Assembly (NCBI RefSeq): GCF_000015945.1
Contig: NC_009033.1
Location: 1,350,001 to 1,382,000, forward strand
DNA from: Staphylothermus marinus F1
GTDB lineage: Archaea > Thermoproteota > Thermoprotei_A > Sulfolobales > Desulfurococcaceae
Direction of reading: 5' to 3'
DNA: 32,000 nucleotides
Part shown: positions 6,378-25,584 of the stretch, piece after piece
Numbering within the stretch: the first letter of the stretch is position 1
Layout: the number at the start of each line of letters is the position of its first letter
Program-made: the position numbers and the translations under genes
Notes under the pieces: generated by a model
What the model was told of the DNA's origin: nothing
Databases searched by the model: none
Seen by the model: only the letters and a program-made list of their open reading frames with translations

Positions 6378-8042
6378 TTGAAAATATGGCTCTTAACATT
6401 TGAATCAACCTACACGAGAAAAGTAGGTGGATTAGCAGAAGTTCCTCCCAGACTAGGTACTGCTTTAAAAAATAAAGGTCATGATGTAACTATTATTGTT
6501 CCAAGTCATGGATTCATAAAAGAACATTCTAAAGAATTAGAATTCATAAAGAAGTATAGGATTAGAAATAGAACAATAGAAATATATATGTATTCTAAGC
6601 CTCCAGTAGAACATATTATTATTGGAGGAGACATACTGGAAGAAAGCGAAGTATATGCTTCAGAATACCTATTAGAGAAGATTATTCTATGGAGTATTGG
6701 TTTAAAACTCTATGCAGAATATTTATTGAATAATGAGGGAATAATACCGGACATTGTCCATGCTAATGACTGGCATAGTGTTCCAGGAATTGTAGGTTTA
6801 AAATCTGTTTATGATATGAAGGGATCAAGGGATTATGTAGGCTTCTATTATCAAATACATTTATTGTCTAGACACTATTATCCTATTGAACACCTAACCT
6901 ATATGATAGGAGTAGATCCGAATAAGGAGGTTCGAGGCATTTATGGATGGAAAACGTTCAGGGAATACTATGAGTTATCACATGGATATGCTGATAGATT
7001 GGGGGGATTACTCAGTGATAAAACACTCACGGTTAGTCGAGAATATATAAAGGAAGTAGTTAAGAGAATAGGATGGGATCTAATAGAACATGTTGACTAT
7101 ATACCTAATGCTACTACTTGGAAAACAGAGGAAATAATAAATAATGTTCTAAAAATACATGAGACGCTTAAAACATATATTAGAGAACTCAACGACATCA
7201 TATCGAATCGTATCAATATTAGAAAGTATTTCTTACTTGAAGGCTTAAGCAAAATGAGTAGTGAAGAACCGGTTATTGATGATAAAGACTTCAAAGCATT
7301 CATAGATAAACTAGATGTTCCCCCATTTATAGGTGGAGGCAAAATAGTTCCTTTCAAAGAAGAGGGGCCACTAGCTATTATTACTGGTAGACTGGCTAGA
7401 CAAAAGGGTATACATGTATTTCTCAAAGCTGTTGAGGAAATAATTTATCGTGTACCAGAAGCAAAATTTATATTACTACTCTTGCCTGTTTGGGGCGAGA
7501 AAAGATTAGCTGAAGAACTAATAGAGTATACTATAACTATGCCTGATAATATTAGAGTAGTTTTCGGAAGAACTAAGAGCATATATCAGTTAGCTCACCT
7601 CGCAACAGATATAATGATTGCTCCAAGCATATATGAACCATTTGGGTTAATGGCTCTTGAAGCAATGTCTGCAGGTGCACCTGTAGTTGCTAGTAAGACT
7701 GGGGGATTAGCTGAAACAGTTATAGATATTATCATGAATGGTGTTACGGGTACAGGATTACATGTTATCCCCGGAGATCCAGATGATCTTGCTGATAAAA
7801 CAAGTGATCTCCTATTATTCATGGAGACAAGTAACTATGAAGCATGGAGTCGTGAATGGAAAAGAGTTTTGGAGAGAATAAATAATAAAGCACTAGTTGA
7901 AATATTATTATCGAATCCTAAAGCGCCAGAACTTGTTAGAAGATCAAGTATTAGAAGAGCCATGAGCTATACATGGGATAAATCAGCTGAAAAAGCTTTG
8001 AAAATATATATGGGAGCTAAAAATGATCTTCAAAAGATTTAA
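6378..8042 (+). CDS. glgA: Glycogen (starch) synthase, GT5 family
   Basis: 'RKVGGLAEVPPRLG' is the K-x-G-G-L motif. Also has 'TGRLARQKG' and the E-x7-E motif 'EPFGLMALE' followed by 'AMSAGAPVVASKTGGL'. TTG start at 6378 is preceded by GGAGG at 6366-6370. Lies 21 nt after the upstream GH57 gene. Confidence 0.9.
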   Translation: MKIWLLTFESTYTRKVGGLAEVPPRLGTALKNKGHDVTIIVPSHGFIKEHSKELEFIKKYRIRNRTIEIYMYSKPPVEHIIIGGDILEESEVYASEYLLEKIILWSIGLKLYAEYLLNNEGIIPDIVHANDWHSVPGIVGLKSVYDMKGSRDYVGFYYQIHLLSRHYYPIEHLTYMIGVDPNKEVRGIYGWKTFREYYELSHGYADRLGGLLSDKTLTVSREYIKEVVKRIGWDLIEHVDYIPNATTWKTEEIINNVLKIHETLKTYIRELNDIISNRINIRKYFLLEGLSKMSSEEPVIDDKDFKAFIDKLDVPPFIGGGKIVPFKEEGPLAIITGRLARQKGIHVFLKAVEEIIYRVPEAKFILLLLPVWGEKRLAEELIEYTITMPDNIRVVFGRTKSIYQLAHLATDIMIAPSIYEPFGLMALEAMSAGAPVVASKTGGLAETVIDIIMNGVTGTGLHVIPGDPDDLADKTSDLLLFMETSNYEAWSREWKRVLERINNKALVEILLSNPKAPELVRRSSIRRAMSYTWDKSAEKALKIYMGAKNDLQKI

Positions 8043-8406
8043 AGGTATAAGAATCGAGAGAGAGCAATGGCTTAAATCAATACCCGTACGTGTAGTTGAG
8101 GACTACACAGAAGATGATAATGGTATAGTTACAATTCTCGTCGAGCTCGAATATAGAGGTTTAATCGGTAAAATAATTAAGGCGATCTCAATTACTCCAC
8201 CGCCAAAATATAAACGAATAGTACTTGATAAGATAGGATCTGTTGTGTGGAAAATGTGTGACGGAAAACATACTGTAGAAGACATAATTAAGAAACTAAT
8301 GTCTATAACAGGTCTTTCTAGGAGAAATGTTGAATTAGCCGTCTACCACTATATAAAAACACTTGTAATGAAGGGTTTAATAGAATTAAAAATCCCGGAA
8401 AAATAA
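8023..8406 (+). CDS. PqqD-family / RiPP-recognition-element (RRE)-like small protein
   Basis: C-terminal half 'LDKIGSVVWKMCDGKHTVEDIIKKLMSITGLSRRNVELAVYHYIKTLVMKGLIEL' fits the PqqD winged-helix pattern (iW.l.DG..tv.eI...l......v..dv..fl..L...glI). ATG 8023 overlaps the glgA 3' end by 20 nt. GGGAG lies 7 nt upstream. Confidence 0.65.
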   Translation: MIFKRFKGIRIEREQWLKSIPVRVVEDYTEDDNGIVTILVELEYRGLIGKIIKAISITPPPKYKRIVLDKIGSVVWKMCDGKHTVEDIIKKLMSITGLSRRNVELAVYHYIKTLVMKGLIELKIPEK

Positions 8407-8419: not shown

Positions 8420-9268
8420 TTGAAACTAATTTCTTGGAATAAGGTTGAAGTGAAACTGCCAGGTGGATGGGAAATAACAAGAGAGGGAGGAACAAGTATT
8501 AATGGAGTCCTAGTAGCAGCACCTGAAACTGGTGCAAAACTCGAAATATATTGGAGACATAGTAAACCAAGTGATTTTCCTAAAGCCTACGAGAAATACC
8601 TTGAAAAACTCGAGAAGAAAGGATTTGTTAGAAAAAATAGTTTCTCAACGACGCTACATAAACATAAAGTATTAGGGTATTTTTTGAGAGATGAAAACAA
8701 TAAAGTATTTACAGCATCGTGGTTTTGTGACGAAACAAGGAGACTATTCATAGTCCAATTAGACGGTAAATCAGTATCTATGGGATTATTTACGAGTATT
8801 CTGAACAATATAAATTGTCATCCAATCCATAATGGAATGGTTAATTGGAGACTAATGGGTATAGGGTTAAGACTGTATGAGGACTATTTTGTTAATCTTA
8901 GAGATTTCAAAATAGGTTATAGCATGGCTTATTTTATGAGTAGAGATAAAAAAGTACATGTAATACAGTACTCTATAGCTAGATACGTAATCGAATCACA
9001 AGAGACAAGCGAGGATGATGTTTTCAAAAAGCATCTAAGATACCTCACACCTCGATTCACTAAGCTAGTTCTCATTGACAAGAATTCTTATGAAAAATAC
9101 TATATAGTACACACTTTGCTACAGAAAATCAAATACGGTGTCTTATTGAAGAAGGTGAATAAATGTATTAAACCCGACTATGTACAATACACACTAGTTA
9201 AGGCACCCCGTAAAAGACTGGATGAAGCAATAGATATTGTGAAGGGTACTTATTGTGTTGAATGGTGA
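8420..9268 (+). CDS. Hypothetical cytoplasmic protein (282 aa), no family recognised
   Basis: Long ORF in a tight same-strand series: 13 nt after the PqqD-like gene and overlapping the next gene by 14 nt. TTG start. No TM segments or motifs that I can name. Confidence 0.55.
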   Translation: MKLISWNKVEVKLPGGWEITREGGTSINGVLVAAPETGAKLEIYWRHSKPSDFPKAYEKYLEKLEKKGFVRKNSFSTTLHKHKVLGYFLRDENNKVFTASWFCDETRRLFIVQLDGKSVSMGLFTSILNNINCHPIHNGMVNWRLMGIGLRLYEDYFVNLRDFKIGYSMAYFMSRDKKVHVIQYSIARYVIESQETSEDDVFKKHLRYLTPRFTKLVLIDKNSYEKYYIVHTLLQKIKYGVLLKKVNKCIKPDYVQYTLVKAPRKRLDEAIDIVKGTYCVEW

Positions 9269-9620
9269 AAAATACTTAACAATACCGATTGAGACAGCTC
9301 TACATGATTTATTGAGAGAATATGGTATTGAACTAAATGATTTGTTCGCTGCAATGATTGATGAAGGAATAGATGTGTATAGAGAGCTTCTGAATAGAAT
9401 TGATCATGTAACTAACGATATAGTACAAGTAATAAGGAATACGCCGTGGAAACTAGTTGCATTGACCCTATTTGTTCTACAAGCATTCTACATAACTAAT
9501 TTATCAGGTCTCTACAAAGGATATTTTCTTGATCCTCCCAGGGAAGATATTATGAATGGTTTAAAAGCACGCTTCACAGGAGTCTTAGTGTTGATGCATA
9601 GACTTAAATTCTTGATATAA
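9255..9620 (+). CDS. Hypothetical small protein; possible ribbon-helix-helix N-terminus plus one TM helix
   Basis: GTG start overlaps the upstream stop. 'YLTIPIETALHDLLREYGIELNDLFAAMIDEGI' has a strand-helix-helix look (CopG/Arc-like). The hydrophobic segment is 'WKLVALTLFVLQAFYITNL'. The domain call is low-confidence. Confidence 0.45.
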   Translation: MLNGEKYLTIPIETALHDLLREYGIELNDLFAAMIDEGIDVYRELLNRIDHVTNDIVQVIRNTPWKLVALTLFVLQAFYITNLSGLYKGYFLDPPREDIMNGLKARFTGVLVLMHRLKFLI

Positions 9621-9707: not shown

Positions 9708-11546
9708 ATGTGGTGGTATTTAATGAAGTTGCTTGATAAGTTTCTGGTAAGCCTCTTACTAGGAGTGGTAATAGCTAGTATATTATCTATATCAACAACC
9801 ACTTTATCTGCAGTAACAGCAACAGATAACACCGTCACAGTAACAGAGTCTTATCTAAAAATTACTTGGGACCTAGATCATGGTGGAGCAATACAAAATA
9901 TTCAGCCCGTATGTAGCGATTTCAAAAACACCCCTGTAGCTAAAAAAGGAATAGCTGCTGACAGGGGTGGATTAGCTGGAAAAGAATCCACTATTCACGC
10001 AGTAATGTGGGATATTATATCTGATAACAATCCATGGGAAGGATACGCTGTTTATGCTAAAGCTTCATATGAAGTATTGAAGGAGACGCCAAATTATACA
10101 ACTATTCAGATCACATATACTCTTCCCAATGACTCGCCTTTTGCAGGACTAAAAGTAATTAAAACGTATCGTGTATATAATAATTCATTTATTGTAGACT
10201 TTAATATGACGCTAACCAACACCGGAACAAACCCTGTAACAATTGATCTATCAGATGCTTGGGGACGCCCTGTAGGCCCAATGATCGAGCTAGTGTCGTT
10301 AATGGGTAGTAAGCAGGATGAATATCAGTTTATGTTGTTCAATAATGGAAAACTAGAATCTTATTATCAAGGATCAAGCTGGGGAGGAGCTCCCGGCGGA
10401 CCAGTAAAGGTTGACGGCACATTAAAGGGTATTGGAATCTATGATAACACAACTGATCCGTCGCCATGGGGCTTTATGATCGCATTATTCATGGCGGACG
10501 ATGAAACAGTTTCAAAAACAAGCTATGTATGGTTTGAAACTAGTGCTGGAGGATCTCAGAACACCATTATACGTGTAGAGTTTAAACCATTAACACTTAA
10601 CCCTGGCGATAGCGAAGAATACCATATGAAAATCTATGCTGGGCCTCTTCATCGTGAATACTTGGTTAAAGAAGCAGGTTTTACAGAACAACAATATAAG
10701 ACCTTCTTCTACAACCCAGCTTTCTCCCCCAAAATACCGTGTAGGGTTGTTGCTGTAGAGCTCAAGTACCCCGTTAATGTTAAGATAGTTACTGAAGGAG
10801 GAACTGGTGTGCCTAAGGCAGCGATTTCCGTTTACGACTATTATTCTGGAACACCATATGTTCAAACGGAAATTGAAAGCAATGAGTTCACGATTAAAAT
10901 ACCATACAATAATGCAACATATACTCTAGGAATTTCTCCGCAGACAGGAACTACACGAGATGGCTATGGAGAATTTATATTCAAGAGCTGGATACTACCG
11001 AATGGAACAGAAATCACGGGATCAAAAATAAATGTTACATTGAAGGAAGGCGATACTATTACTTTAAAATTCGGGATCAGGCCATTAGCTAAACTAGTTA
11101 TACTCTTCGTATCACCTGATGGATCATACCTACCACAACAAGCTGAAACCATAAACTTTACTATATTAGGCTCTGCTGGGGAACTATTATTCAAGGGCTC
11201 CTCAGCTCCAACATCAAGAAACATTACAGCATTGGATCAATCAGTTTCACCTCCTAGACCTGGTTTTAAAGTGCCGGGAATATATGTTATACAAGTACCT
11301 TTAAAGGCGGGTGTTTATACACTAAGCAAAATAATGATCGATAATACTGAGTTACAGTATACAATAATAGGAGATAAAGCACAAGCAACGTTTACACTGG
11401 ATCAAGCAGGTAAACACGAATTAAAAGTGGTATATTCAACAGGAGGCATAACAGGCGGTGGGGGAGGATTATTAATCTGGATTATAGTAGTTGCGGCACT
11501 AATAGCTATCATTATAATAGCTTTGCTATTGAAGAAGAAAAAATAA
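9708..11546 (+). CDS. Extracellular, C-terminally membrane-anchored glycoprotein of unknown function (possible glycan-binding beta-sandwich)
   Basis: N-terminal signal/anchor 'LVSLLLGVVIASILSISTTTLSA'. Many N-x-S/T sequons. Gly-rich linker 'GGITGGGGG', then TM 'LLIWIIVVAALIAIIIIALLL' and a 'KKKK' tail. A TATA-like 'TTTTTAATATT' at 9677-9687 is centred about 26 nt upstream of ATG 9708. Confidence 0.7.
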   Translation: MWWYLMKLLDKFLVSLLLGVVIASILSISTTTLSAVTATDNTVTVTESYLKITWDLDHGGAIQNIQPVCSDFKNTPVAKKGIAADRGGLAGKESTIHAVMWDIISDNNPWEGYAVYAKASYEVLKETPNYTTIQITYTLPNDSPFAGLKVIKTYRVYNNSFIVDFNMTLTNTGTNPVTIDLSDAWGRPVGPMIELVSLMGSKQDEYQFMLFNNGKLESYYQGSSWGGAPGGPVKVDGTLKGIGIYDNTTDPSPWGFMIALFMADDETVSKTSYVWFETSAGGSQNTIIRVEFKPLTLNPGDSEEYHMKIYAGPLHREYLVKEAGFTEQQYKTFFYNPAFSPKIPCRVVAVELKYPVNVKIVTEGGTGVPKAAISVYDYYSGTPYVQTEIESNEFTIKIPYNNATYTLGISPQTGTTRDGYGEFIFKSWILPNGTEITGSKINVTLKEGDTITLKFGIRPLAKLVILFVSPDGSYLPQQAETINFTILGSAGELLFKGSSAPTSRNITALDQSVSPPRPGFKVPGIYVIQVPLKAGVYTLSKIMIDNTELQYTIIGDKAQATFTLDQAGKHELKVVYSTGGITGGGGGLLIWIIVVAALIAIIIIALLLKKKK

Positions 11547-11655: not shown

Positions 11656-14600
11656 ATGAAAAAAACGATATTTATCTATTTATTTTTCTTAATCGTTATT
11701 TCTCTTCTCTCATCTATAAATTCCACTGGTGCATATTCAGTAAGTAATAATAGTGATTTTTTAAACAATCCAGTTTATGGTGTTTTTAATAAAGTATTAA
11801 ACATTAATTTAACAACAACGAATACGAGTGCTAAGCTTAATCATTATCTTCACTTATTTGCTAACATACCTGATAGATTAACAGGGCATAAAGGATATTT
11901 CGAAGCTACAAAGACTCTATACAATTTAATTAAAAATATCACTTACAATGTCGTCCTAGATAATTATACAGTTGTAATCCCAGTTGATGAGGGTAGTTAT
12001 CTAAGAATCGGTGATAGAACTATAAAGGTTTATCCGCTATGGCCTAGTGGAGGTGTTCCAGTTAATGCTCGTTGCAGAGGTAAAATTATTGTTGCAAATA
12101 CCATTAATGATCTTAACGGTGTAGATCTTCATGGAAGCATATTATTAATAAGCTACTCAACTGATTGGCGCTGGTTATGGCTTCTTGATCCACATCTAGG
12201 AGTAAAAGCAATTTTGTTCTATGAAGATAATATTATTAATAGTCAGAATTACGACAAATACCTTGATGCACCAGTTGATCTCCCTATAGGCTATATATCG
12301 ACTCGAATGCTTAAAGAAGAATATGGTTTAACACTTAGTGATCTCAATGGTAAGACGGGCTATTTAGAGCTAAGATCAAAATGGATAGAAGTTAATGTTT
12401 CAAATATTGTTGCATATATACCGGGACAAAACCATGATTATAAGATCATGTTAGTAACTCATTATGATTCATGGTCTCCAGTAGTAGGGCTTGCTCCTGG
12501 AGCAACCGATATTTTGGCTCCAATATACTTGTTAATGTATGCTGAGAAACTAGTAAATGAGATCCCTCAGTATGATACTATAATGGTGTGGTTCTCTGGA
12601 TACTATGAGGGTTTAGAGGGGCAGAGGCATTTTGTGGATAAATATATTTTTAATAAACAAGAGTTGTCTTTTGGAAATACATCTATAGCTATAGATCCTG
12701 CAAAAACATTATTTATAGGATTAGATCTAAATTATCGTTCCAAATACATAGCTCCAACTAGTATAGGATATTTCTATACAGCACAAGCAGTTGGAATAAC
12801 TCGTGGCCCAATAAACTATTATGCTGGTTTTATATCAAATGTTTTTGATCTGAATAAGCTTGAACAAAGTGTTTCGAATAAGTTAGGAAGAGATCTAGGA
12901 TCTGCTGTTAGACAATTATTCTCATATTCACGCGACCCTAATACATGGTGGACTCTATTTCCCGGCCCATACTGGCTCGATACAGAGCCGTTTTGGAGTG
13001 CTGGATTAGCAGCTTTCACTCTTAAATCAGCTTTCGCTGAAAAAGGTGTAAGAGGGACACCGATTGATTATTTTGATAAAGTCAATTTGGAAAATATATT
13101 GTTGCAGTATAGCTTGCTCGATATAATATTGGATCAAGTATATAATAAGGATCCACAACAACTAGGACACGCTATCTCAACAGGGTTATCTCCAAATGCG
13201 CCAACACGTATTAGTACGAGTCCTCGTAATGAAATGTTTGCTAATTTAATTGGACAAGTTATGGTTTGGGATCCGAAGCTTGGACAACGAGTTAGTCTTA
13301 AGAAAGCAAATTTAAGCAGAGCCTTAGTTATTATTAGTGCTGGATCGCGGACTCAGACAAGTAGTCCTTGGAATTTAAGGATAGTAAGGTTTACCGATGA
13401 GGAAGGATATTTTAGTGTTGAAGGATTACCTACATCGAGATCAACAGGTTTAACAATAACTGCTCTTGTCCTCACGACTAATGGGAGTGTGGTAGCGTTA
13501 AATGTTATGGGAGCTGTGTCTAGGGGTTCATATGTTTCAATTTCACAGCCAATACTAGGATCGAAACTAGCACCTTGGGAAGTATGGATCATTAAGTTTA
13601 AAGGAAACATAACTGTAAACATGGTTGTAGATCCCTTATCTTATCAAGTGCCTATTGAGGGTGGAAGCATAGGATGCAGAATCGTAAGAATGGATACAAT
13701 GGCTGAGCCAGACTATTACTATTTAGGGATCGATGAAACAGGATTCTTTGTAGCTTATCTATATAAGGATCTTAATTATAGCCTAGTATTCGGTCCTAAC
13801 CCAGTATACTATGTTATTGAAAATGCTAAGGTCGGACATAAATATAGCTTGTTTGATGCATTACACTCTACAATAAATGTCGATAATAGGAGGTTGGCGA
13901 AATTATCTAGCTATAAAGTAAGGAATCCAGCTGCAGAAGAATTCGTTACTAGAGGTATGTCTGCATTATCTAATGCAACCAAATCTCTCTCAACATATAA
14001 TTATACAGCATATAGAGCCTATATCCTTGAAGGCTTAACTTTAGCATATAATGCTTATCAATTAACTAAATCTGCTTATCTAGACGTAGAAAACACTGCT
14101 ACATTGTTCTCAGTATTACTAGTTTTGTTCGCGTTTATTATGGGGCTCTACTTTAGAAAACCAGGTGCTAGCCCATTTAATGTAATTGGGAAAACACTAG
14201 TAGCAACTGCTATTCCAGGTGTAATATTTTATTTTATACATCCCGCTCTCCATTTAACAGCCAATGCTATAATGACTATTATCGGTTTCGTGATGATAAT
14301 CCTAGTAATACCAGCGCTTCTAGTTCTCCTAGGCGATTTCAATAAGGCATTGAGGGAAATAAGGAGAAAAATAGTCGGTGTCCACGAGGTTGAGAGAAGC
14401 AAGCTCGTAGCTGGTTATATGTCTTTCAGTTACGGCGTTGAATATATGAAGAAGAGAAGATTGAGAACACTATTGACAATAATAACTTTAATTGTTGTCG
14501 TAATAAGTGTTGTTTTATTCACAAGTATGACAAGCTATGTGGCTCCTAAACCAGTTGCTTTGACAGGCTTTGAGCCTACAAGGCCTCAAGGCTTCTTATT

Positions 14601-16086
14601 GCAGAGGGAAACAATAGATAGAAATCTGCCAATGGGGAGCCAATTATATGATCTAGTTAAGGTTATCATTGGCAGAAATGCTGTTGTAAGGTATTGGGCT
14701 GTTGGATCAACTTATCTATTCCTATACGATGATCCCTCGAAGTATTACCCGATAAATTCTATAACAGCAGTAGAGCCTACAGAAGATACAATCAGTAATA
14801 TATCAAAGATTATTGTTAAGGGTAGATGGTTTAATAGCTCAGACCAATTCGTTGCAATAATACCTGCTACAGCAATAAGTGATACCAATGGAGTTATCGA
14901 TGTTAATAAAACAATTGTTATCGCAGGAGTAAAGTTTAGGATCATAGGAGCATATGATGATAGAAAAATCTTGGAGATAAGAGAGCTAGACGGACAAACT
15001 ATTACACCCGTAATCGGATTCCCACGAGCTAGAACTGTTAGAACAATATTTATTCCAGCTAGAATAGCTGAAACCAATCCATGGCTGAATAAAGGTTTAA
15101 ACTTTTATTTAGCTCAAATATCCATTAAGACGAGGAACGATCCATATATTCTAGGCAAAGATATAGTATTTATCCTGCCATCAACAGATACTTATGCATA
15201 CTCTCCTATTCATGGAGTAGCCAAGTATAGTAAAATGATTGCATTGAGCGGCGCTGGCTTCAACTATGTTGTTGCACCAATTATAATTGCCAGCGTTTCT
15301 ATTCTTGGTGTTCTTCTCGGAAGCATATATGAGAGGAGAAGAGAAATATTCATTTATGCCGCACTAGGATTATCGCCTAGCCAGATAGGTTTAATGTTCA
15401 TAGCGGAGGCATTAGCATATGCTCTAATAGCTACTGTGATAGGCTATGTTACAGGAATACTTATAACTACTACAGCAGCAACATTTTTGCCTGGAGTATT
15501 CCGGCCAAACTATAGCAGTGGATACGTTGTATTGGCTATTGCTGCTACATTTATTTCTGTCTTAACAGCTACTATATACCCTGTATTCAAAGCAAGCAAG
15601 ATGGCATTACCAAGTCTCCGCAGGAAATGGGAGTTCCCAACAAAGCCCAAAGGAGATGAATGGATTATACCTATGCCCTTCAAGATCACAAGTTATAGGG
15701 AACTAGTTGGCTCACTATATTATGTATACGAATATATTAGTGGATTCACAAGCCCAGACATAGGTAATTTTGTGGTTGAGAAGATAAGTATTAGTAAAAC
15801 AACAATGAATAGCAAAAATGTTGTAATATTAGGAGGTATTGTTAGACTTAAGCCATGGCATGCAGGTGTAAAACAAGAATTCCAGATTAGAGCGTTGGAA
15901 GTTAATCCGAATGAGTGGGAGATCAGTATTTATCTTAAGAGATTATCGGGTAATACAAGATTATGGATTAGGTCAAACAAGTTCTTCATAGATGCTCTCC
16001 GTAAACAATTACTATTATGGAGAACCATTACTCCCGACGAGAAGAAACAATACATTGAAAAAGCTGAATCAGTAATCAAAGCTTAA
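11656..16086 (+). CDS. Giant membrane protein: signal peptide, M28/PA peptidase-like ectodomain, 3 TM helices, MacB/FtsX-type ABC permease module, cytoplasmic tail
   Basis: PA-like segment 'CRGKIIVANTINDLNGVDLHGSILLISY...GVKAILFYED'. M28-like segment 'NIVAYIPGQNHDYKIMLVTHYDSW...GATD...SGYYEGLEGQRHF'. MacB ectodomain-like segment 'VKGRWFNSSDQFVAIIPATAI...IVIAGVKFRIIGAY'. FtsX core 'IYERRREIFIYAALGLSPSQIGLMFIAEALAYALIATVIGYVTG'. GGTGA lies 7 nt upstream of ATG 11656. Confidence 0.75.
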   Translation: MKKTIFIYLFFLIVISLLSSINSTGAYSVSNNSDFLNNPVYGVFNKVLNINLTTTNTSAKLNHYLHLFANIPDRLTGHKGYFEATKTLYNLIKNITYNVVLDNYTVVIPVDEGSYLRIGDRTIKVYPLWPSGGVPVNARCRGKIIVANTINDLNGVDLHGSILLISYSTDWRWLWLLDPHLGVKAILFYEDNIINSQNYDKYLDAPVDLPIGYISTRMLKEEYGLTLSDLNGKTGYLELRSKWIEVNVSNIVAYIPGQNHDYKIMLVTHYDSWSPVVGLAPGATDILAPIYLLMYAEKLVNEIPQYDTIMVWFSGYYEGLEGQRHFVDKYIFNKQELSFGNTSIAIDPAKTLFIGLDLNYRSKYIAPTSIGYFYTAQAVGITRGPINYYAGFISNVFDLNKLEQSVSNKLGRDLGSAVRQLFSYSRDPNTWWTLFPGPYWLDTEPFWSAGLAAFTLKSAFAEKGVRGTPIDYFDKVNLENILLQYSLLDIILDQVYNKDPQQLGHAISTGLSPNAPTRISTSPRNEMFANLIGQVMVWDPKLGQRVSLKKANLSRALVIISAGSRTQTSSPWNLRIVRFTDEEGYFSVEGLPTSRSTGLTITALVLTTNGSVVALNVMGAVSRGSYVSISQPILGSKLAPWEVWIIKFKGNITVNMVVDPLSYQVPIEGGSIGCRIVRMDTMAEPDYYYLGIDETGFFVAYLYKDLNYSLVFGPNPVYYVIENAKVGHKYSLFDALHSTINVDNRRLAKLSSYKVRNPAAEEFVTRGMSALSNATKSLSTYNYTAYRAYILEGLTLAYNAYQLTKSAYLDVENTATLFSVLLVLFAFIMGLYFRKPGASPFNVIGKTLVATAIPGVIFYFIHPALHLTANAIMTIIGFVMIILVIPALLVLLGDFNKALREIRRKIVGVHEVERSKLVAGYMSFSYGVEYMKKRRLRTLLTIITLIVVVISVVLFTSMTSYVAPKPVALTGFEPTRPQGFLLQRETIDRNLPMGSQLYDLVKVIIGRNAVVRYWAVGSTYLFLYDDPSKYYPINSITAVEPTEDTISNISKIIVKGRWFNSSDQFVAIIPATAISDTNGVIDVNKTIVIAGVKFRIIGAYDDRKILEIRELDGQTITPVIGFPRARTVRTIFIPARIAETNPWLNKGLNFYLAQISIKTRNDPYILGKDIVFILPSTDTYAYSPIHGVAKYSKMIALSGAGFNYVVAPIIIASVSILGVLLGSIYERRREIFIYAALGLSPSQIGLMFIAEALAYALIATVIGYVTGILITTTAATFLPGVFRPNYSSGYVVLAIAATFISVLTATIYPVFKASKMALPSLRRKWEFPTKPKGDEWIIPMPFKITSYRELVGSLYYVYEYISGFTSPDIGNFVVEKISISKTTMNSKNVVILGGIVRLKPWHAGVKQEFQIRALEVNPNEWEISIYLKRLSGNTRLWIRSNKFFIDALRKQLLLWRTITPDEKKQYIEKAESVIKA

Positions 16087-18377: not shown

Positions 18378-20333
18378 TTGGGTGAATCAAAGATCATTGG
18401 TGGATCAGCGGTTACATGGCGTGTTGTTTTAGCCATTCTTTATGGAGCATTAGTGTTTGAACCAGCAGCTATATGGCTTAACTTGGTTGCAGGTCTTAAT
18501 CCTTGGCAAATAATTAATTCTGCAGAATATACTACACTACTACTGTTCACAACTATTGCCGCAATAATGGGGGCTAGGCTTACTCGTCAAGAAGCATTTG
18601 TAATGTTTAGTAATGTTGGAACAACAATTTCTGAAAGCTTGTTTGGAGTAAACCTTATACTTGCATGGTATATTGCCATAAGCGAGTATGCTAGAAGTTT
18701 TGGATTATATGGTAAGATACCCTTCTGGTATGCTCCTAGCATTCCTGAACTGCCTAGAACGCTTTTCCAAGCAGTATTTATTCCACCTCTTCTTGTAGCT
18801 ATTGCGTCTGCTTTACTCACTAAAGGCATGGATCTTAGCTTGGCATATGTGCTCTACAAAATATATGCTGTAGAAGAAAAATTACCTTTTCCAGGTGCTA
18901 GGGTATGGGCTGAATCTAGTATTGTTCTTGCAGAAAAACATATTTGGAGAGATAAGGCTAGGGTAATGATCAGCGTTGCAATATTCAGTTTACTTTATAC
19001 TTTCCTACTATACGGTGTTTGGTTCATGTTTGGTGTCCAACTACTTCCTGTTCCATGGGCTGATCTAACGTCTTCTCTTGAATCTATAGGATTAAATGGT
19101 GCTAGTCTAGGTTTCAGCCTAGATCTATTATTGATAAGTGTAGGTATGATTATGCCTTGGAGAGTTAATGTATCAATATTTATTGGAGGAATATTTGCTT
19201 ATCTAATAGGTGCTCCAATGGCTGTTAAGTATGGATTATTCACATTATGGAGGCCGGGAATGAATCTAGGAGATATTTTCCAGTATGGACTGCTCCAATT
19301 ATATGTAGGACCATTAATAGGGTTAAGTTTTGCGGCTGGATTAGCGCCAATGGTTATTAATTGGAGAAGTGTTGTTAGAGTATTTAGACCTCCTAAGATA
19401 CGTGGTAGAGAAACAAGCGCAACATCAGAGCCTACTATTTGGGGGTTATCGCTCACAAGATTTGCTCTCTTAATATATTTATTGTCAGCTACTGGGTTAA
19501 GCTTGTTTGTTTATTATCTGATATATATTGTTGAGCCACAATATGCTACTCTTCAATTCCTATTATTATTCCTAGCATTAATAGTGGGTTTCTCCACGTT
19601 ATTCCAATTAGCAAATACTCGTGCTCTAGGTGAAGCGGCTACTGGGATAAACCTACCATATATTAAAGAGGGCGCTTTACTAGCGAGTGGTTATAGAGGT
19701 GTTGCAGCATGGTTTACACCCATATATGTTTATGGAGGAGCTAGTGGATGGACAGCAGTCTATGTTGCATGTGATTGGACGAATACTAAGAAGAGCGATT
19801 ATTTGAAAGCATACTTTATAGCGTTTCCTCTAACATATTTGATGGGTCTATTATATGCAGATATATTCTGGAGAATAGCTCCTATTCCAAGCTCGGCTTA
19901 TCCAGCAACAGCTGTTTTCTGGCGTGTAGCAGCGTTATGGGCGTTATTATGGCCTGCATGGACAAGTGGTGCACTAAAAACAGGTGAAAGCAGTATAGCA
20001 TCCGCGTTATTATCGCACTTCTCTAACTGGCCCTTACGGATAATGCTACCATTTACAATTGGAGCAATAATAGTTGCCTTAGTCAAAATATTCTCGATAC
20101 CATTCGAACTCATAGGATTCACTATAGGTATTAGTCAGCCAATATCATATACTATGACAATGTTCATCGGAGGCATTATTGCTAGGATACTGGAGAAAAA
20201 GAAAGGGTCCGAGTGGTTTAGAGAATATGTTGCAGTTATATCAGCGGGTCTGGGGCTAGGAGAAGGGCTTATGATAGCTATATCGGTTGCTGTTGCATTA
20301 ATCATGAAAAGCCTCTGGCTACTCGTATATTAG
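18378..20333 (+). CDS. OPT-family (oligopeptide transporter superfamily) membrane transporter
   Basis: 651 aa with about 16 TM segments. 'EEKLPFPGARVWAESSIVL' matches the OPT LPFPeG.A.AE motif. The C-terminus 'FIGGIIARILEKKKGSEWFREYVAVISAGLGLGEGLMIAI' resembles the OPT terminal 'f.GG.ir.......aSGLIaGE.L.g' pattern. TTG start with GGGAGG 11 nt upstream. Confidence 0.62.
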   Translation: MGESKIIGGSAVTWRVVLAILYGALVFEPAAIWLNLVAGLNPWQIINSAEYTTLLLFTTIAAIMGARLTRQEAFVMFSNVGTTISESLFGVNLILAWYIAISEYARSFGLYGKIPFWYAPSIPELPRTLFQAVFIPPLLVAIASALLTKGMDLSLAYVLYKIYAVEEKLPFPGARVWAESSIVLAEKHIWRDKARVMISVAIFSLLYTFLLYGVWFMFGVQLLPVPWADLTSSLESIGLNGASLGFSLDLLLISVGMIMPWRVNVSIFIGGIFAYLIGAPMAVKYGLFTLWRPGMNLGDIFQYGLLQLYVGPLIGLSFAAGLAPMVINWRSVVRVFRPPKIRGRETSATSEPTIWGLSLTRFALLIYLLSATGLSLFVYYLIYIVEPQYATLQFLLLFLALIVGFSTLFQLANTRALGEAATGINLPYIKEGALLASGYRGVAAWFTPIYVYGGASGWTAVYVACDWTNTKKSDYLKAYFIAFPLTYLMGLLYADIFWRIAPIPSSAYPATAVFWRVAALWALLWPAWTSGALKTGESSIASALLSHFSNWPLRIMLPFTIGAIIVALVKIFSIPFELIGFTIGISQPISYTMTMFIGGIIARILEKKKGSEWFREYVAVISAGLGLGEGLMIAISVAVALIMKSLWLLVY

Positions 20334-20418: not shown

Positions 20419-22944
20419 ATGGGGGTTGCCATGAATAAAGCTATCATGCTTATGCTTACTACAATAGTTATCATTTCATTGATCACAATATCACCTAGTA
20501 TAAGCCAGACATATAAAATATATGCTTTTGTAACAACAGATTCACCAATATACCTTCCAGGATCACAACTAGTTGCAGAAGCATACATATATCCGCTTGT
20601 TCAAGAGAGCAGAGAAGCCATCGTTAAATTTTATTTTACAGATCTACCCAACGCTCCCACTATCCCAGAAATACATGTAACAATACCCTCAGTAAATGAT
20701 GCAAGAGTTATTCATGTAGAATCACAGCCGGTTACCGTTCCGGATGTAAATGATGGAACATATCATTTACATATGCAGATCATAGTAAATAACCAAGTCA
20801 TATATGAGGACACAGTTGATTTCTGGGTTAGACATGGACCACCATCAGGTAAGCCGCCTATGATACTTTTCGTTTGGCATAACCATCAAGCACCAAACTA
20901 TTGGCCCGATGGAACATTCTTCGCCAACTGGCATATAGATCACTTTTTCAAAGATAGTTTAACGCCATACTTCAAGATCGATAATGTATATCCTGATATG
21001 GGCACCTATTACCTACACTATTACCTCCTAAAGAAATATCCTAATATCAAAGTGAACCTACATTATAGCCCAAGCCTACTATATCAATTATATATTGCTG
21101 CAAACAAGGGGTTCACAATTTATGATCCAAACACAGGCTCTACCAAAAAAGTACCACCTAACAGCTCACTTGCCCAGACAATCAGGGACTTCTTCAAGGG
21201 ATTAAAACAACTATATGATGAGGGTAGAGTATATCTTTTAACAACAGAATTTGCACATACAATAGCAGGTTATTTGATTGAGAAATTCAACATCCCATAT
21301 CTTCTAAAATACGATATATGGTTAGGTAAGGAATGGACTAAAAAAGTCTTAGGTGTAGATACAGATGCTATATGGACCGCTGAAATGGCTTGGAGCGATA
21401 AACTTGTTCCAATATACTTAGATTTAGGGTTTAAATACACTGTTTTAGACGGCACTTATCATTTTCCCGGTGCACAAGGCGATAAGGGAACAATATATGA
21501 ACCCTACATTGTCAAGGATAGTAAGGGAAGAGAGTTAATAGTCTTCTTCCGTGATCAAGAAGTTAGCGACGGATATATTGGTTTTACAAACAATGATTGG
21601 AGAGATCCTAGAACAGCTGATCGAGATGCAAGAGCTCTCTATTACCACATATACAATAAGCATTCATTTAAAAACTATAAGTATCCTCCTATTGAAGTAA
21701 TCGCTCTTGACGGAGAAAACTGGATATTATTTGCTCCAAGCCACGCTAATGGTGCACTATTTCTCGACAGAATCTATAAATATGTTAGTAGATTAACAGA
21801 TCAGGGAATAATGAATACTGGAACATTTAGAGACGCTGTTAGAGTACATCCGCCGGAGAGAGTATTAACAAGTATTCCATGGACAAGCTGGCTTGGAGGA
21901 TGGGGCAAGTGGACAACTGAGAGAGGAACTGAGCATAAAAAAGAATGGGAAAAACTATATGAACGTATAGGGAAGTATAAGGCATATATGTATTATAAAA
22001 ACATAGATTCATATAGTAAATTCATAGACGAGATCAGAGAGAATCCTAAATTTAACGAGTCAGTAATAGACTTAATACATGCGATCGACAGTGATTTCTG
22101 GTGGAGCGAATTCTTCTCACCAGGCGTAATAGATGCTTGGCTCGGAGAATTTGACCTTGATATTTCAAACATTATGAAATACGAGATATCATTCACTACA
22201 TTACCTTCTCAACCAGTTTCACAGACTACGACTAAAGCAATAGTTACAATTACAAATAATAATGATTACCCAATGAAGGACACCATAATAACTCTAAGTA
22301 TGCCGGGAATAAATGCGACAACTAAACAAGTAACAATAACCCCGGGCGACTCAGTAAATGTATCATTGATATTCAAGGTGGAGAAAGCCGGAACAAAACA
22401 ACTAGTATTAACAATGTACACACCAAACGCAAAAATTGGTAAAAATATATATTATTTCGAAACAAGAAGCTTCAAAATAAAATTCCTTAGCCCAATTGAT
22501 CTATCATTAAAAATAACAGTTGTCGGTCCGAACGGTGTATTAGGAGGCATAAATCCTACACCTCCCGGCATACATAAAATATTCGCAACTGTTTCACTAT
22601 CTGAAGGCGAAAGCGCTTCATTCGATGTTCCCGTTAAAATATATTTGAATATAGGGGGACAAACATATGTCAGAGAAGCTACTATATTCCAGGGAGAAGA
22701 TAGCGCTACAGTAGTGTTTAATGTGGATCTGAAGACTGGAACCTATACATATGAAGTCAATGCTATATCACCATATGATCCATTCCTTGACAACAATAAA
22801 TTTGTTGGGCAAATAATAGTGATGCAAACTAAGCAAGAAAATACAGGTGGAAATACGCAACTACTCATAATACTAGCAATCATTCTATGGATTATAGTGG
22901 CTATTTTAGCTATTCTATACTACATCAAACATAAAAGATCATGA
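20419..22944 (+). CDS. Secreted, membrane-anchored GH57 amylopullulanase-like glycoside hydrolase with CARDB-like C-terminal domains
   Basis: Signal peptide 'AIMLMLTTIVIISLITISPSISQ'. GH57 motifs are 'LFVWHNHQAPNYW', 'IWTAEMAWSDKL' (nucleophile Glu) and 'VIALDGENWILF' (acid/base Asp). Has two beta-sandwich repeats ending 'DPFLDNNKFVGQIIV'. C-terminal TM 'LLIILAIILWIIVAILAILYYI' plus 'KHKRS'. Start is ATG 20419 or ATG 20431. Confidence 0.85.
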   Translation: MGVAMNKAIMLMLTTIVIISLITISPSISQTYKIYAFVTTDSPIYLPGSQLVAEAYIYPLVQESREAIVKFYFTDLPNAPTIPEIHVTIPSVNDARVIHVESQPVTVPDVNDGTYHLHMQIIVNNQVIYEDTVDFWVRHGPPSGKPPMILFVWHNHQAPNYWPDGTFFANWHIDHFFKDSLTPYFKIDNVYPDMGTYYLHYYLLKKYPNIKVNLHYSPSLLYQLYIAANKGFTIYDPNTGSTKKVPPNSSLAQTIRDFFKGLKQLYDEGRVYLLTTEFAHTIAGYLIEKFNIPYLLKYDIWLGKEWTKKVLGVDTDAIWTAEMAWSDKLVPIYLDLGFKYTVLDGTYHFPGAQGDKGTIYEPYIVKDSKGRELIVFFRDQEVSDGYIGFTNNDWRDPRTADRDARALYYHIYNKHSFKNYKYPPIEVIALDGENWILFAPSHANGALFLDRIYKYVSRLTDQGIMNTGTFRDAVRVHPPERVLTSIPWTSWLGGWGKWTTERGTEHKKEWEKLYERIGKYKAYMYYKNIDSYSKFIDEIRENPKFNESVIDLIHAIDSDFWWSEFFSPGVIDAWLGEFDLDISNIMKYEISFTTLPSQPVSQTTTKAIVTITNNNDYPMKDTIITLSMPGINATTKQVTITPGDSVNVSLIFKVEKAGTKQLVLTMYTPNAKIGKNIYYFETRSFKIKFLSPIDLSLKITVVGPNGVLGGINPTPPGIHKIFATVSLSEGESASFDVPVKIYLNIGGQTYVREATIFQGEDSATVVFNVDLKTGTYTYEVNAISPYDPFLDNNKFVGQIIVMQTKQENTGGNTQLLIILAIILWIIVAILAILYYIKHKRS

Positions 22945-22969: not shown

Positions 22970-23521
22970 ATGAGTAGCTTAACCGGGGAAACATCAAAAA
23001 TTCTTAAAAAAGTCTTGCCTACCGATGCAGAAATAATATACGATAAAGGAGGAGCAACACTAGTTTATTTCAAAAATAACCCGTATATAAGGTATTTTTT
23101 CATAGGCAAAAACACAACCAAGTATACAGGCGAATTCTATTATATAACAATATCTGTTCTAGAATTAGATGAGCAATTAGAGAATATTGGATACGTTGAC
23201 ATCATAGTTAAAAAGGGTATTCTGGGTCTAGGTAAGAAATTATTATTGAGTGGAAAGGGAAAACTCAAAGATATAGTTGATAAACTGATCGAAAAATTAA
23301 GGGATCAAATATTTTCTACAAAATATGAGGAAATAATATTAAAAACAAGCGGCAAGCTCGTGCTTGTTGATAAGGAGATAAAGCCTTCTAAAGGATCTAG
23401 TATCGTATTAGTGGGGAGAACACGTGTTTTCTATACACTAACGCCTGCCTCAGATATTAAGAAAATGTTTTTACTGAATGAAGAGTTTTTGAAAGAAGTA
23501 TATTCTAGCCTATATCAATAA
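22970..23521 (+). CDS. Hypothetical cytoplasmic protein (183 aa)
   Basis: ATG lies 25 nt after the GH57 stop and is preceded by GTGAGGA. No recognisable motifs. The 3' end overlaps the convergent ABC ATPase gene by 17 nt. Confidence 0.5.
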   Translation: MSSLTGETSKILKKVLPTDAEIIYDKGGATLVYFKNNPYIRYFFIGKNTTKYTGEFYYITISVLELDEQLENIGYVDIIVKKGILGLGKKLLLSGKGKLKDIVDKLIEKLRDQIFSTKYEEIILKTSGKLVLVDKEIKPSKGSSIVLVGRTRVFYTLTPASDIKKMFLLNEEFLKEVYSSLYQ

Positions 23522-24236
23522 TTATATCTCTTATCTCAGCTGTTTGTCTCTCCTCTATTCTCTCAATTTTTCCATCTCTAATATAAACTATTCGATCACT
23601 TACATCAATCATTTTTAGATCATGAGTGTTAGTGACAACTGTAACGTTACGTGTTAAGCTTATATCTTTCAATAAATTAATAACCTGCTTACCCGTAACT
23701 AGATCTAAGTTAGCTGTTGGCTCATCTGCTAGTATTATTGATGGATCGTTAGCTAATGCTCTAGCAATAGCCACTCTCTGTTGCTGACCTCCGCTGAGCT
23801 CAAAGGGTCTATGATAAAGTCTTTCTCCAAGACCAACTGCTTCTAAAAGCTTACGTGCTTTCTCAACACGTTTTCTTCTCGGAACACCTGCAAATACCAT
23901 GGGCAATGCTACATTATCTAATGCAGTTAAATATGGTATGAGATTATATGTTTGAAACACATAGCCTAGCTTTTTATTTCTAAAATATGCCAGTTTCTTC
24001 TTTGGCAAAGAATAAATGTCTACTCCATCAACATATACTTTGCCTGATGTAGGTTTATCTAGTCCTCCGATCATGTTGAATAATGTTGTTTTACCACTAC
24101 CACTAGGACCAAGTATTGATACGTATTCGCCCCTATAGATCTCGAGATTTATTCCCTGAAGAGCTTTTACAGTTTCTCCCTTCAATATATAATATTTATG
24201 GAGATCAACAACTTTTATTACGATATCCTCCGCCAT
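23505..24236 (-). CDS. ABC transporter ATP-binding protein (MacB/LolD/FtsE-like class), paralogue A
   Basis: Walker A 'GPSGSGKTT', Q-loop 'VFQTYNL', signature '[15 protein letters not shown]', Walker B '[12 protein letters not shown]', H-loop 'TNTHDL'. Its ATG shares one nt with the upstream TAA (TAATG). Confidence 0.92.
23593..23624. repeat. 32-nt tract identical to 24312-24343 (H-loop region, [12 protein letters not shown])
   Basis: CGATCACTTACATCAATCATTTTTAGATCATG occurs in both copies. Same 719-nt offset. Confidence 0.9.
23722..23765. repeat. 44-nt tract identical to 24441-24484 (Walker B region, [15 protein letters not shown])
   Basis: TCATCTGCTAGTATTATTGATGGATCGTTAGCTAATGCTCTAGC occurs in both copies. 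Same 719-nt offset. Confidence 0.9.
24056..24110. repeat. 55-nt tract identical to 24775-24829 (Walker A region of the two ABC ATPase paralogues)
   Basis: Hand comparison gives the same sequence in both copies: TATCTAGTCCTCCGATCATGTTGAATAATGTTGTTTTACCACTACCACTAGGACC. Flanking bases differ on both sides. Offset between copies is 719 nt. Confidence 0.9.
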
Positions 24237-25003: not shown

Positions 25004-25561
25004 TCACACCTCAACTCTAAGTGCTTCTACAGGGCTCATACGAGCGGCTTGATAGGATGGATATGATGCTGAAACCAAGCCGATAATAATTGCTACAGCT
25101 AATGATTTTCCTAAAAGAAATACTATGTCTCCACTACCACCAAGCATGTATCCTATTCCCATACCAATAATATATCCTAGGAATCCACCTATAACTGTAA
25201 GAATAACAGCTTCCAACATTAATAATTCGAAAATATGAATATCTCTAGCTCCAAAGCTTTTCATAGTTCCAATTTCATGGTATCTCTCAGCAATCATTAT
25301 AAGTAACGAATTCATTGTTCCCGCAGCCGCAACTGTGAAAGCAGTTAGATCAAGCAACAACATATATACTTCAGCACCTTGGGGACTAATATTTGATATA
25401 AGAATAGAGGATAACATGTCTAAGCTAACCATATACGCTATGCTGGCGGTTATAGCGATTATGACAATTAATATACTCCCAATTCGGAGCTTAATACTGT
25501 GGAGAACAAGATATATAGCTTCAGATAATGGCAGTACAGTTTTTTCCTCGCTCATATTCAT
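25004..25561 (-). CDS. Minimal FtsX-family ABC permease (4 TM helices, no large ectodomain)
   Basis: FtsX core 'IAERYHEIGTMKSFGARDIHIFELLMLEAVILTVIGGFLGYIIGMGIG' and C-terminus 'SYPSYQAARMSPVEALRVEV'. Only about 20 aa separate TM1 and TM2. The ORF is open to TTG 25570, but ATG 25561 lies about 27 nt downstream of a TATA-like 'TTATAAA' (plus-strand 25585-25591), which suggests a leaderless start. Confidence 0.8.
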   Translation of the reverse strand: MNMSEEKTVLPLSEAIYLVLHSIKLRIGSILIVIIAITASIAYMVSLDMLSSILISNISPQGAEVYMLLLDLTAFTVAAAGTMNSLLIMIAERYHEIGTMKSFGARDIHIFELLMLEAVILTVIGGFLGYIIGMGIGYMLGGSGDIVFLLGKSLAVAIIIGLVSASYPSYQAARMSPVEALRVEV

Positions 25562-25584
25562 GACCACCAAGTCATGTATAAGTA

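Follow-up and report, generated by a model that had tools for sequence, protein, structure and literature searches.

The 32,000-nucleotide stretch of the Staphylothermus marinus F1 genome analysed here (NC_009033.1, positions 1,350,001 to 1,382,000 of the forward strand; hereafter the window, with positions counted from its first letter) contains a single open reading frame (ORF) encoding a 1476-residue membrane protein, and we use BIG as shorthand for this large subunit and its homologues. It is near certain that BIG combines an M28 aminopeptidase-like ectodomain bearing a PA insert and a MacB_PCD/FtsX permease module in one chain, and, judging from the residues at the active-site positions, the M28 part is almost certainly a pseudo-enzyme in which canonical M28 chemistry has been lost. 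We give a probability of roughly 45% to the reading in which BIG serves as the large subunit of a type VII (MacB/FtsX-class) ATP-binding cassette (ABC) machine that has yet to be characterised. Most of what can be said about function comes from the genomic context and not from the peptidase ancestry, and all components of the gene set conserved with BIG occur in the window. An earlier note on this DNA had described the fusion, which is borne out here; it misses that the protein does not stand alone and belongs to a multi-gene system comprising a pair of OPT-superfamily proteins, a further FtsX protein, two ATPases and a PqqD-like protein.

Identity and architecture of BIG

The ORF begins with ATG, runs without internal stops as the earlier note had it, and is 100% identical in database comparison to the S. 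marinus F1 protein ABN70489.1 / WP_011839683.1 / UniRef100_A3DPC9, for which the existing names are only 'protein of unknown function DUF214' or 'FtsX-like permease family protein'. The genome paper numbers the glycogen synthase gene Smar_1393 and the OPT gene Smar_1400 (PMC2678158), and from the gene order relative to these two we infer that the BIG ORF is Smar_1398.

The chain can be divided into an N-terminal hydrophobic helix, the ectodomain, a β-sandwich region, a stalk, three extra transmembrane (TM) helices, a basic linker, the permease module and a cytoplasmic tail (Table 1). The extra TM helices and the tail had been pointed out earlier and are now placed at residues 814–895 and 1316–1476, and the topology proposed with them, in which the peptidase-like part is outside and both FtsX termini are inside, remains self-consistent with the corrected TM positions. 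The N-terminal helix could be a signal sequence, or it could remain as an uncleaved TM anchor that leaves the N-terminus inside. In one BIG relative, P0028, a PqqD domain lies N-terminal to the equivalent of this helix (database gene call plus Pfam matches), which argues for a cytoplasmic N-terminus and a true anchor helix in that protein.

The ectodomain has an M28 fold and has lost its catalytic residues

Pfam analysis of the single sequence placed Peptidase_M28 at residues 250–329 (E 4.2e-6, 27.0 bits against a cut-off of 21.3), although the match spans only positions 1–80 of the 193 in the profile. When the aligned BIG homologues were searched, Peptidase_M28 was found in 22/22, PA in 2/22 and Nicastrin in 2/22. 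Residues 1–520 of BIG alone retrieved nothing from the PDB sequences at E ≤ 1, and the relationship to M28 enzymes carrying a PA domain was exposed there only by a family profile, which was made from 22 BIG members and searched against the same sequences. This profile matched the M28+PA aminopeptidase 2ek8 (E 1e-26, profile positions 45–328 plus 429–488) and Bacillus subtilis YwaD 6hc6 (E 3.5e-20), with further matches to the transferrin receptor (TfR; about 5e-11) and nicalin (1e-7), as well as to GCPII, PaAP and the Aeromonas aminopeptidase. An AlphaFold2 model of residues 1–860 was of good quality (predicted local distance difference test score, pLDDT, 87.2; predicted template modelling score, pTM, 0.82), and in Foldseek its best match was again 2ek8 (E 6.7e-22), followed by PaAP, TfR and GCPII. 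Pfam, the family profile and Foldseek therefore agree on the fold and on the sequence homology with a PA insert. The profile and Foldseek searches recovered both M28+PA and MacB/FtsX, so that the claim of a hydrolase-like ectodomain fused in cis to a complete MacB/FtsX module stands.

Downstream of residue 510 the model consists of β-sandwiches and then the stalk, so that by AlphaFold2 and Pfam a helical dimerisation domain of the TfR type is not found, and no TFR_dimer match was obtained in BIG or its 22 homologues. The β-sandwich region (residues 528–725) contains a 'TDEEGYFSVEGLP' motif, which we presume to be like those of carboxypeptidase-regulatory-like sandwiches; the region itself has no Pfam match, CarboxypepD_reg being seen instead in the second large FtsX partner encoded at locus L006 (see below). 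The last helix of the stalk runs without a break into the TM helix at residues 814–833 in the model. Identity comparisons within the BIG family indicate that the ectodomain evolves faster than the C-terminal module.

In the profile alignment the enzyme motif 'GAEExGLxGS' of 2ek8 and YwaD lies opposite 'SGYYEGLEG' in BIG. The EExGL of the enzymes is YYEGL in S. marinus, in which the Glu pair is replaced by Y316–Y317 and E318 falls at the variable x position; the 'YE' reading of the pair in the earlier note was one residue out of register. We counted residues at the catalytic positions (which we take to be H97, D117, E151, E152, D179 and H256 in Aeromonas numbering, matched only to the 2ek8 and 6hc6 motifs) in the 22 aligned members and in 176 relatives aligned by hmmalign. 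The general-base glutamate (E151) corresponds to Y316 in S. marinus and, among the 176 relatives, is most often His (128), Tyr (26) or Phe (9) and never Glu, while the glutamate ligand (E152) corresponds to Y317 and is most often Trp (81), Tyr (45) or His (17), and again never Glu. The last histidine ligand (H256) corresponds to G467, with mostly Gly or varied residues in the relatives and His in just 1/22 of the closely aligned members. The remaining positions are partly kept: H97 corresponds to H269 (His in 111 and Tyr in 46 of the relatives), D117 to D285 (Asp in 80 and Glu in 76), and D179 to D357 (Asp in 148). S. marinus thus retains H269, D271, D285 and D357, amounting to three of the five metal ligands (H269, D285 and D357), and lacks the general base.

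Because the Glu pair and one His ligand are gone family-wide, catalysis by the M28 mechanism is almost certainly lost, and the ATP-gated surface peptidase that the earlier note had favoured is not supported, both glutamates being absent from all 176 relatives. Its fall-back, a non-catalytic binding module as in TfR, fits the alignment well, there being no Glu pair in any of these relatives and no conservation of the last His. On the evidence of the surviving ligands a single metal site might persist in some members, including S. marinus, and the aromatic residues that stand in place of the acidic ligands suggest a binding pocket.

The permease module is of the MacB/FtsX type

FtsX was matched by Pfam in the single sequence at residues 1209–1316 (E 3.9e-12, above the curated cut-off) and MacB_PCD at residues 939–1118 (E 4.1e-4, with 21.1 bits falling under the cut-off of 27), and in the homologues FtsX was found in 22/22 and MacB_PCD in 17/22 at E ≤ 0.01 (best 9.4e-11). 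A match to MacB was also obtained by phmmer (E 1.6e-5), and the family profile recovered MacB 5gko (E 9e-13, profile positions 910–1325) along with LolF, YtrF and LolC/E. The AlphaFold2 model of residues 831–1476 had a pLDDT of 75.9, with values mostly of 80–95 across residues 960–1195, and Foldseek placed it closest to MacB (E 7.1e-13) and then to LolCDE, YtrEF, HrtBA and YbbAP. The module has the full FtsX core of TM1, an extracytoplasmic domain, TM2–TM4 and a coupling helix, 'ERRREIFIYAALGLSPSQI', which sits between TM2 and TM3. Its periplasmic core domain (PCD) is of the MacB type (Porter/Sabre) by the homologue counts, the profile and the model, and two genes for ATPases of the cognate MacB/LolD/FtsE class are found 7.4 kb downstream.

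The three extra TM helices showed no homology to FtsX TM2–4 when residues 815–925 were aligned with residues 1190–1325 by hhalign (probability about 1%). The topology of a TM helix (residues 5–21), an ectodomain and three TM helices is suggestive of a duplicated FtsX of the BceB, YbbP or ADOP type, but this alignment leaves such a duplication unsupported, and TIGR03434 ADOP matches BIG at the C-terminal unit only. The tail (residues 1316–1476) is an α/β domain that is strongly conserved in the family ('PSLRRKWEFPTKPKGDEW..RKQLLLWRTL'); its Foldseek matches to START/Bet v 1-like folds are weak (E about 7e-3 to 1e-2) and a profile of the tail found no relatives among the PDB sequences.

BIG is encoded within a conserved gene set

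An OPT-like gene or a DUF6785 gene, and usually both, adjoins BIG in all 20/20 archaeal loci with enough flanking DNA. In S. marinus both lie directly downstream of BIG (Table 1), and the two families are full-length paralogues (hhalign probability 99.9%, E 4e-36 over 578 columns), so that both neighbours belong to the OPT superfamily by sequence and have a predicted transport role. The OPT-like protein also has a weak TIGR00728 match and is homologous to unannotated genes of 635–690 codons beside BIG elsewhere; neither protein matched any PDB sequence. A compact version of the set is seen in the Sumerlaeota locus L002, where the order is DUF6785/6784 – BIG – OPT-like (690 residues) – small FtsX – ABC – PqqD – ABC, and this order recurs in at least 14 metagenome loci; in bacterial loci of this kind the whole set makes up a single operon.

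The best PDB relatives of the two ATPases are MJ0796, Spr0694, the MacB nucleotide-binding domain (NBD) and LolD, i.e. the class that partners FtsX permeases. They are 52–60% identical between S. marinus and the Sumerlaeota operon (L002:17321-20265), while BIG from the two organisms shares about 25% identity over the C-terminal half, and this difference would mean either that the ATPases are very strongly constrained or that the system has been transferred between domains. Next to the ATPase genes in S. marinus is a gene for a minimal FtsX protein of 188 residues, the homologue of which comes after the OPT-like gene in bacterial operons. We note that this protein has essentially no TM1–TM2 loop, which is unusual for a family defined by its extracytoplasmic domain. 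In many Bathyarchaeia and Thermoprotei loci (seven were noted) a second FtsX protein of about 930–1130 residues replaces the minimal one. The single example that was scanned (L006:10859-14176) has an N-terminal CarboxypepD_reg domain and a longer and different C-terminal extension, and in the large second FtsX proteins of Bathyarchaeia the start of the tail carries the same motif as the BIG tail.

The PqqD-like protein of S. marinus has a homologue encoded between the two ATPase genes in L002 and another that is fused to BIG in P0028. ORFs joining ABC and PqqD sequences in metagenome loci were attributed to start-codon over-extension in ORF calling and were not used. The first 20 nt of the PqqD-like ORF overlap the glycogen synthase ORF at its 3' end (8023–8042), and the ORFs for the 282- and 121-residue proteins that follow overlap at 9255–9268; these overlaps of the small upstream genes suggest translational coupling.

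Two further proteins have a more restricted association with BIG. The gene directly upstream encodes a 612-residue surface protein with a weak YidC_periplas / GH36N (β-supersandwich) match, and the gene divergent from that of the small FtsX protein encodes a Cys-rich protein of 151 residues, homologues of which accompany the small FtsX/ATPase block in three other loci and which may be a further component or regulator.

Table 1. Features of the BIG locus in the window and the evidence on which each assignment was made (aa, amino acid residues of the protein named).
Feature	Position	Strand	Evidence or remark
Whole BIG ORF	11656..16086	+	1476 aa; ABN70489 / A3DPC9
N-terminal hydrophobic helix, aa 5–21	11668..11718	+	Hydropathy
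Pseudo-aminopeptidase ectodomain, aa 55–510; M28 fold with PA (apical) insert at about aa 112–240	11818..13185	+	Pfam, profile, AlphaFold2, Foldseek
β-sandwich region, aa 528–725	13237..13830	+	AlphaFold2 secondary structure, pLDDT mostly >85
Three-helix stalk, aa 732–813	13849..14094	+	AlphaFold2 (helices 732–752, 758–779 and 783–833)
Three extra TM helices, aa 814–833, 847–865 and 872–895	14095..14340	+	Hydropathy and model
Basic cytoplasmic linker of BIG, aa 896–940		+	Models and hydropathy
MacB/FtsX type VII ABC permease module, aa 941–1311	14476..15588	+	Pfam, profile, AlphaFold2, Foldseek
FtsX TM1 of BIG, aa 941–957
PCD of BIG, aa 958–1205
FtsX TM2–4 of BIG, aa 1206–1311
Family-specific cytoplasmic tail, aa 1316–1476	15601..16083	+	Conservation, AlphaFold2
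PqqD-like small cytoplasmic protein	8023..8406	+	Pfam PqqD E 9e-9
Soluble protein, 282 aa, no family match	8420..9268	+	Syntenic in Desulfurococcales; also in two other loci
Protein of 121 aa, no family match	9255..9620	+	Syntenic in Desulfurococcales only
Surface protein, 612 aa; N-terminal signal/TM, β-rich ectodomain, C-terminal TM followed by KKKK	9708..11546	+	Desulfurococcales only
DUF6785 polytopic membrane protein, 676 aa	16192..18222	+	Pfam DUF6785 E 2.7e-28; adjoins BIG in nearly all loci
OPT-like polytopic membrane protein, 651 aa, Smar_1400	18378..20333	+	Pfam OPT E 7.8e-11, 41.8 bits against a cut-off of 25.8
GH57 protein, 841 aa; N-terminal signal/anchor, predicted extracellular	20419..22944	+	Between OPT-like and ATPase genes, also in relatives
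ABC ATPase 1, 243 aa, MacB/LolD-class NBD	23505..24236	-	Pfam ABC_tran E 1.7e-36; 53–58% identical to the Sumerlaeota operon ATPases
ABC ATPase 2, 254 aa	24236..25000	-	67% identical to ATPase 1
Minimal FtsX protein, 188 aa, four TM helices, no ectodomain	25004..25570	-	Pfam FtsX E 4.3e-16, hydropathy
Cys-rich, zinc-ribbon-like protein, 151 aa (CPCG ... C ... CANPAC)	25690..26145	+	Divergent from small FtsX gene
GH57 amylopullulanase, no signal peptide	26161..28080	+	Identical to PDB 7E1Y (1488.9 bits over residues 1–639)

Distribution of the BIG family

A phmmer search with the ectodomain against a database of 1.84 billion cluster representatives returned 686 representatives at E ≤ 1e-3 and 461 at E ≤ 1e-10. 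Among the best 150 of the 686, 132/146 of the new representatives are at least 1300 residues long, indicating that the fusion is the rule in the family, and the shorter BIG representatives look like fragments. A scan of one genome per species identified 54 loci, all of them archaeal, in Desulfurococcales, many Bathyarchaeia, Brockarchaeota, Thermofilum, other Thermoprotei and one Promethearchaeota (Asgard) metagenome-assembled genome (MAG); it should be noted that the M28 motif served as the search pattern, which biased the scan towards that clade. Seven loci with BIG, OPT-like and DUF6785 genes were found in a single Bathyarchaeia MAG (JAWCEH01), and another MAG has two tandem copies of the same trio.

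One Sumerlaeota bacterium and no fewer than 514 metagenome stretches encode more distant relatives of 1650–1900 residues, in which Pfam detected no M28 domain. The consensus of the distant bacterial relatives, 'YPFLPNH ... AxYDAxSVLPDxAPGAxRA', is a more degenerate form of the corresponding block in BIG, and its persistence suggests that the family as a whole descends from an ancestor with the dead-peptidase ectodomain.

Flanking genes and the α-glucan island

In S. marinus and in syntenic Desulfurococcales MAGs the gene set is embedded in an α-glucan island consisting of a GH57 gene, a GH57 gene of the 4-α-glucanotransferase type, a GT5 glycogen synthase gene and two more GH57 genes. Four GH57 genes therefore lie within 32 kb (window positions 1–8042, 20419–22944 and 26161–28080), and GH1 and MFS transporter genes are also present. 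The last GH57 protein is the cytoplasmic S. marinus amylopullulanase of PDB entry 7E1Y, which is cited as pullulan- and cyclodextrin-degrading (PMC12106739), and its gene is a context marker for α-glucan or cyclodextrin catabolism. In bacteria, GntR+Peripla_BP_3 regulators are found upstream of the operon in at least five loci and directly adjacent in at least three, and the neighbours include GH130, GH172, GH43, GH42, rhamnosidase, fucosidase, GFO/IDH/MocA and GDSL genes. Counts of flanking Pfam families were mixed, and a strictly universal carbohydrate link was downgraded.

The intergenic regions of the window did not yield a shared regulatory motif, with only AT-rich TATA-like words recurring. 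The lowest G+C content in the window is at 28001–29000 (0.26 compared with about 0.36 elsewhere), which covers an AT-rich intergenic region and a 247-residue ORF (28222–28965) with an N-terminal signal-like sequence.

A candidate import mechanism and its alternatives

If BIG is the large subunit of a type VII machine, the two ATPases could pair as a heterodimer, seated on an asymmetric FtsX pair in which BIG is joined by the 188-residue FtsX protein. ATP binding and hydrolysis would then be transmitted through the stalk helices to the PCD and the pseudo-aminopeptidase/PA receptor, as in the mechanotransmission of MacB, LolCDE and FtsEX, and the movement would open and close the receptor. This would capture an extracellular oligomer and pass it to the neighbouring OPT-like pair as the transmembrane path, giving nutrient uptake as the net function. 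The S. marinus cargo would likely be an α-glucan oligosaccharide (maltodextrin or cyclodextrin), with other lineages probably having different cargo. We favour uptake because of the multiplicity of paralogues, the faster-evolving ectodomain, the sugar-type regulators and the catabolic neighbours, and we advance this receptor-plus-OPT-conduit mechanism tentatively, with the odds lying somewhat against it. It is possible, and rather doubtful, that the whole amounts to a new hybrid ABC–OPT nutrient importer, which would represent the first import role for MacB/FtsX proteins, the first ATP-coupled OPT system and a device resembling a polysaccharide utilisation locus. On that same doubtful view the captured oligomers would be glycans in some lineages and perhaps peptides in others, the M28 form would be common to Thermoproteota (among them Bathyarchaeia and Brockarchaeota) and one Promethearchaeota MAG, and the degenerate form would occur in many uncultured bacteria.

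A number of points weigh against these proposals. We know of no characterised type VII ABC system that imports, those known to us exporting, extracting or activating, and OPT transporters are driven by protons and do not require an ATPase. The ATPase genes are not found within 10 kb of BIG in most archaeal loci, and complex formation, stoichiometry and the direction of transport are all read from gene order. Many Bathyarchaeia and metagenome flanks contain housekeeping, methyltransferase/corrinoid or peptidase (M16, M24) genes, and the carbohydrate link, which holds for Desulfurococcales and some bacteria, is moderate and not universal. The import mechanism has no role for the PqqD-like protein or the START-like tail, and the three surviving ligands may allow a single-metal site and some non-canonical chemistry. 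Peptides would also be an equally natural cargo, as published descriptions have S. marinus fermenting peptides, and its Smar_1400 gene was annotated as a peptide transporter (PMC2678158).

The best-placed alternative, which we nevertheless consider unlikely, is an envelope export or extraction machine in which the ABC pair, much as in LolCDE, MacAB or YbbAP–TesA, would extract or expel a molecule from the membrane or the cytoplasm and deliver it to the ectodomain, which would pass it on to the cell surface. The cargo could be a lipid-linked glycan, a lipoprotein or a peptide, with the OPT-like proteins acting as flippase-like partners and the PqqD-like and START-like parts binding the cargo inside. 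Characterised type VII systems do act outward or within the envelope, and PqqD-family domains are peptide-binding chaperones in the pathways of ribosomally synthesised and post-translationally modified peptides (RiPPs), which counts for this alternative as the PqqD-like protein is a cytoplasmic one whose gene shares an operon with those of the ATPases. Some flanks carry genes for GT2 glycosyltransferases and UDP-glucose dehydrogenase, and the fold weakly matched by the BIG tail is a lipid-binding one; however, that match (E about 1e-2) has no sequence-level relative behind it, and neither precursor peptide, RiPP enzyme nor glycan-assembly genes are conserved in the operon at the loci examined. 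The occurrence of up to seven diverged paralogous loci in one genome is more in keeping with uptake than with a housekeeping role in the envelope, as are the sugar-type regulators and the catabolic glycosidases found as neighbours.

We think it improbable that BIG is a regulator or sensor like FtsEX, in which the ATP cycle would switch the ectodomain to activate or tether a surface enzyme, or would report flux as in BceAB. Precedents exist in FtsEX–EnvC/PcsB/RipC/CwlO and in BceAB, and a predicted secreted GH57 enzyme and the surface-anchored β-rich 612-residue protein are syntenic with BIG in the Desulfurococcales, but these candidate partners are lineage-specific, whereas the universally conserved neighbours are the two OPT-like proteins, and the operon has no conserved signalling genes, two-component or otherwise. 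An ATP-gated and catalytically active surface aminopeptidase is very improbable indeed: the M28+PA fold and homology, the retention of H269, D271, D285 and D357, and a peptide-fermenting host with an OPT-type neighbour that could import the products would all suit it, but the Tyr–Tyr and Gly substitutions speak against it, as do the Tyr at the H97-equivalent in 46 relatives and the Glu at the D117-equivalent in 76, and the bacterial relatives ('YDA..APGAxRA') are more degenerate again. Finally, an artefact in which a frameshift or mis-assembly had joined two genes is ruled out by the complete genome and by homologues in the hundreds, independent of one another and matching it in length and domain order, from isolates, MAGs and metagenomes.

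Significance

BIG is the hallmark subunit of a putative multi-gene membrane machine that is widespread and unstudied. Type VII ABC systems are understood from a few bacterial machines (MacAB, LolCDE, FtsEX, BceAB, HrtBA and YbbAP), and to these the BIG family adds an archaeal and environmental-bacterial branch of hundreds of 50%-identity clusters, a putative receptor made from a dead aminopeptidase and fused in cis, and a fixed partnership with OPT-superfamily proteins that are not known to have been linked to ABC motors before. If the uptake proposal is correct, it would account for the intake of oligomers by sediment lineages with many carbohydrate-active enzymes (Bathyarchaeia, Brockarchaeota and Sumerlaeota) and by the starch-using Desulfurococcales, and it would give a function to DUF6785 and DUF6784. 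Even if the mechanism is wrong, the current annotations are due for revision, as the description of BIG as an FtsX-like permease or DUF214 protein with an M28 match that can be read as a peptidase is misleading, and so is that of Smar_1400 as a 'peptide transporter'.

Comparison with known systems

Literature searches on FtsX+OPT+PqqD, on FtsX+M28+archaea (which retrieved one unrelated paper) and on the BIG accessions found no description of this system; those on the DUF6785/DUF6784 branch and on Smar_1397–1399 found none either, and Smar_1400 was found in the genome paper only. No characterised archaeal type VII system turned up in the literature search, those retrieved being bacterial, and occurrence in Archaea is one respect in which the BIG system differs from them.

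BIG shares with MacB, LolCDE, FtsEX, YbbAP and YtrEF the four-helix FtsX core, the PCD between TM1 and TM2 and the coupling helix after TM2, and its locus likewise encodes MacB/LolD-class ATPases and an asymmetric FtsX pair like LolC/LolE. It differs in having about 790 residues of extra ectodomain, three extra TM helices and a 160-residue tail in one chain, and the system differs in that the partner FtsX protein has no ectodomain, the two ATPases are distinct, and linkage in the genome to a PqqD-like protein and a pair of OPT-superfamily proteins is obligatory. MacB/FtsX permeases work by mechanotransmission, and bacterial FtsEX regulates hydrolases outside the cytoplasm, or activators of these (EnvC, PcsB, RipC and CwlO). 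The coupling of a hydrolase-fold module to a type VII motor at the outer face is shared with these FtsEX systems and with YbbAP–TesA, but in BIG the module is fused in cis and its catalytic residues are lost, and for this reason BIG does not appear to be a regulated enzyme of a known kind.

The two invariant neighbours of BIG belong to the OPT superfamily, and no OPT member is known to us to operate together with a receptor subunit or an ABC motor. A secondary-type carrier fed by an extracytoplasmic receptor has a precedent in TRAP/TTT systems.

The closest relatives of residues 45–510 are the Aneurinibacillus aminopeptidase 2ek8, YwaD/BSAP (6hc6) and PaAP, in which the PA insert is at the same position. 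Those enzymes are soluble, secreted and active with a di-zinc site, whereas in BIG the EE pair has become YY, the last His is Gly, and the domain is tethered to the membrane within a permease. TfR, nicastrin and nicalin resemble BIG in having kept the M28/PA fold and lost catalysis while serving as receptor or gatekeeper in a membrane complex, but they are eukaryotic single-pass proteins without an ATPase motor, and BIG lacks the TfR helical domain. As the nearest relatives of BIG are bacterial aminopeptidases, its dead-peptidase ectodomain arose independently of TfR, nicastrin and nicalin.

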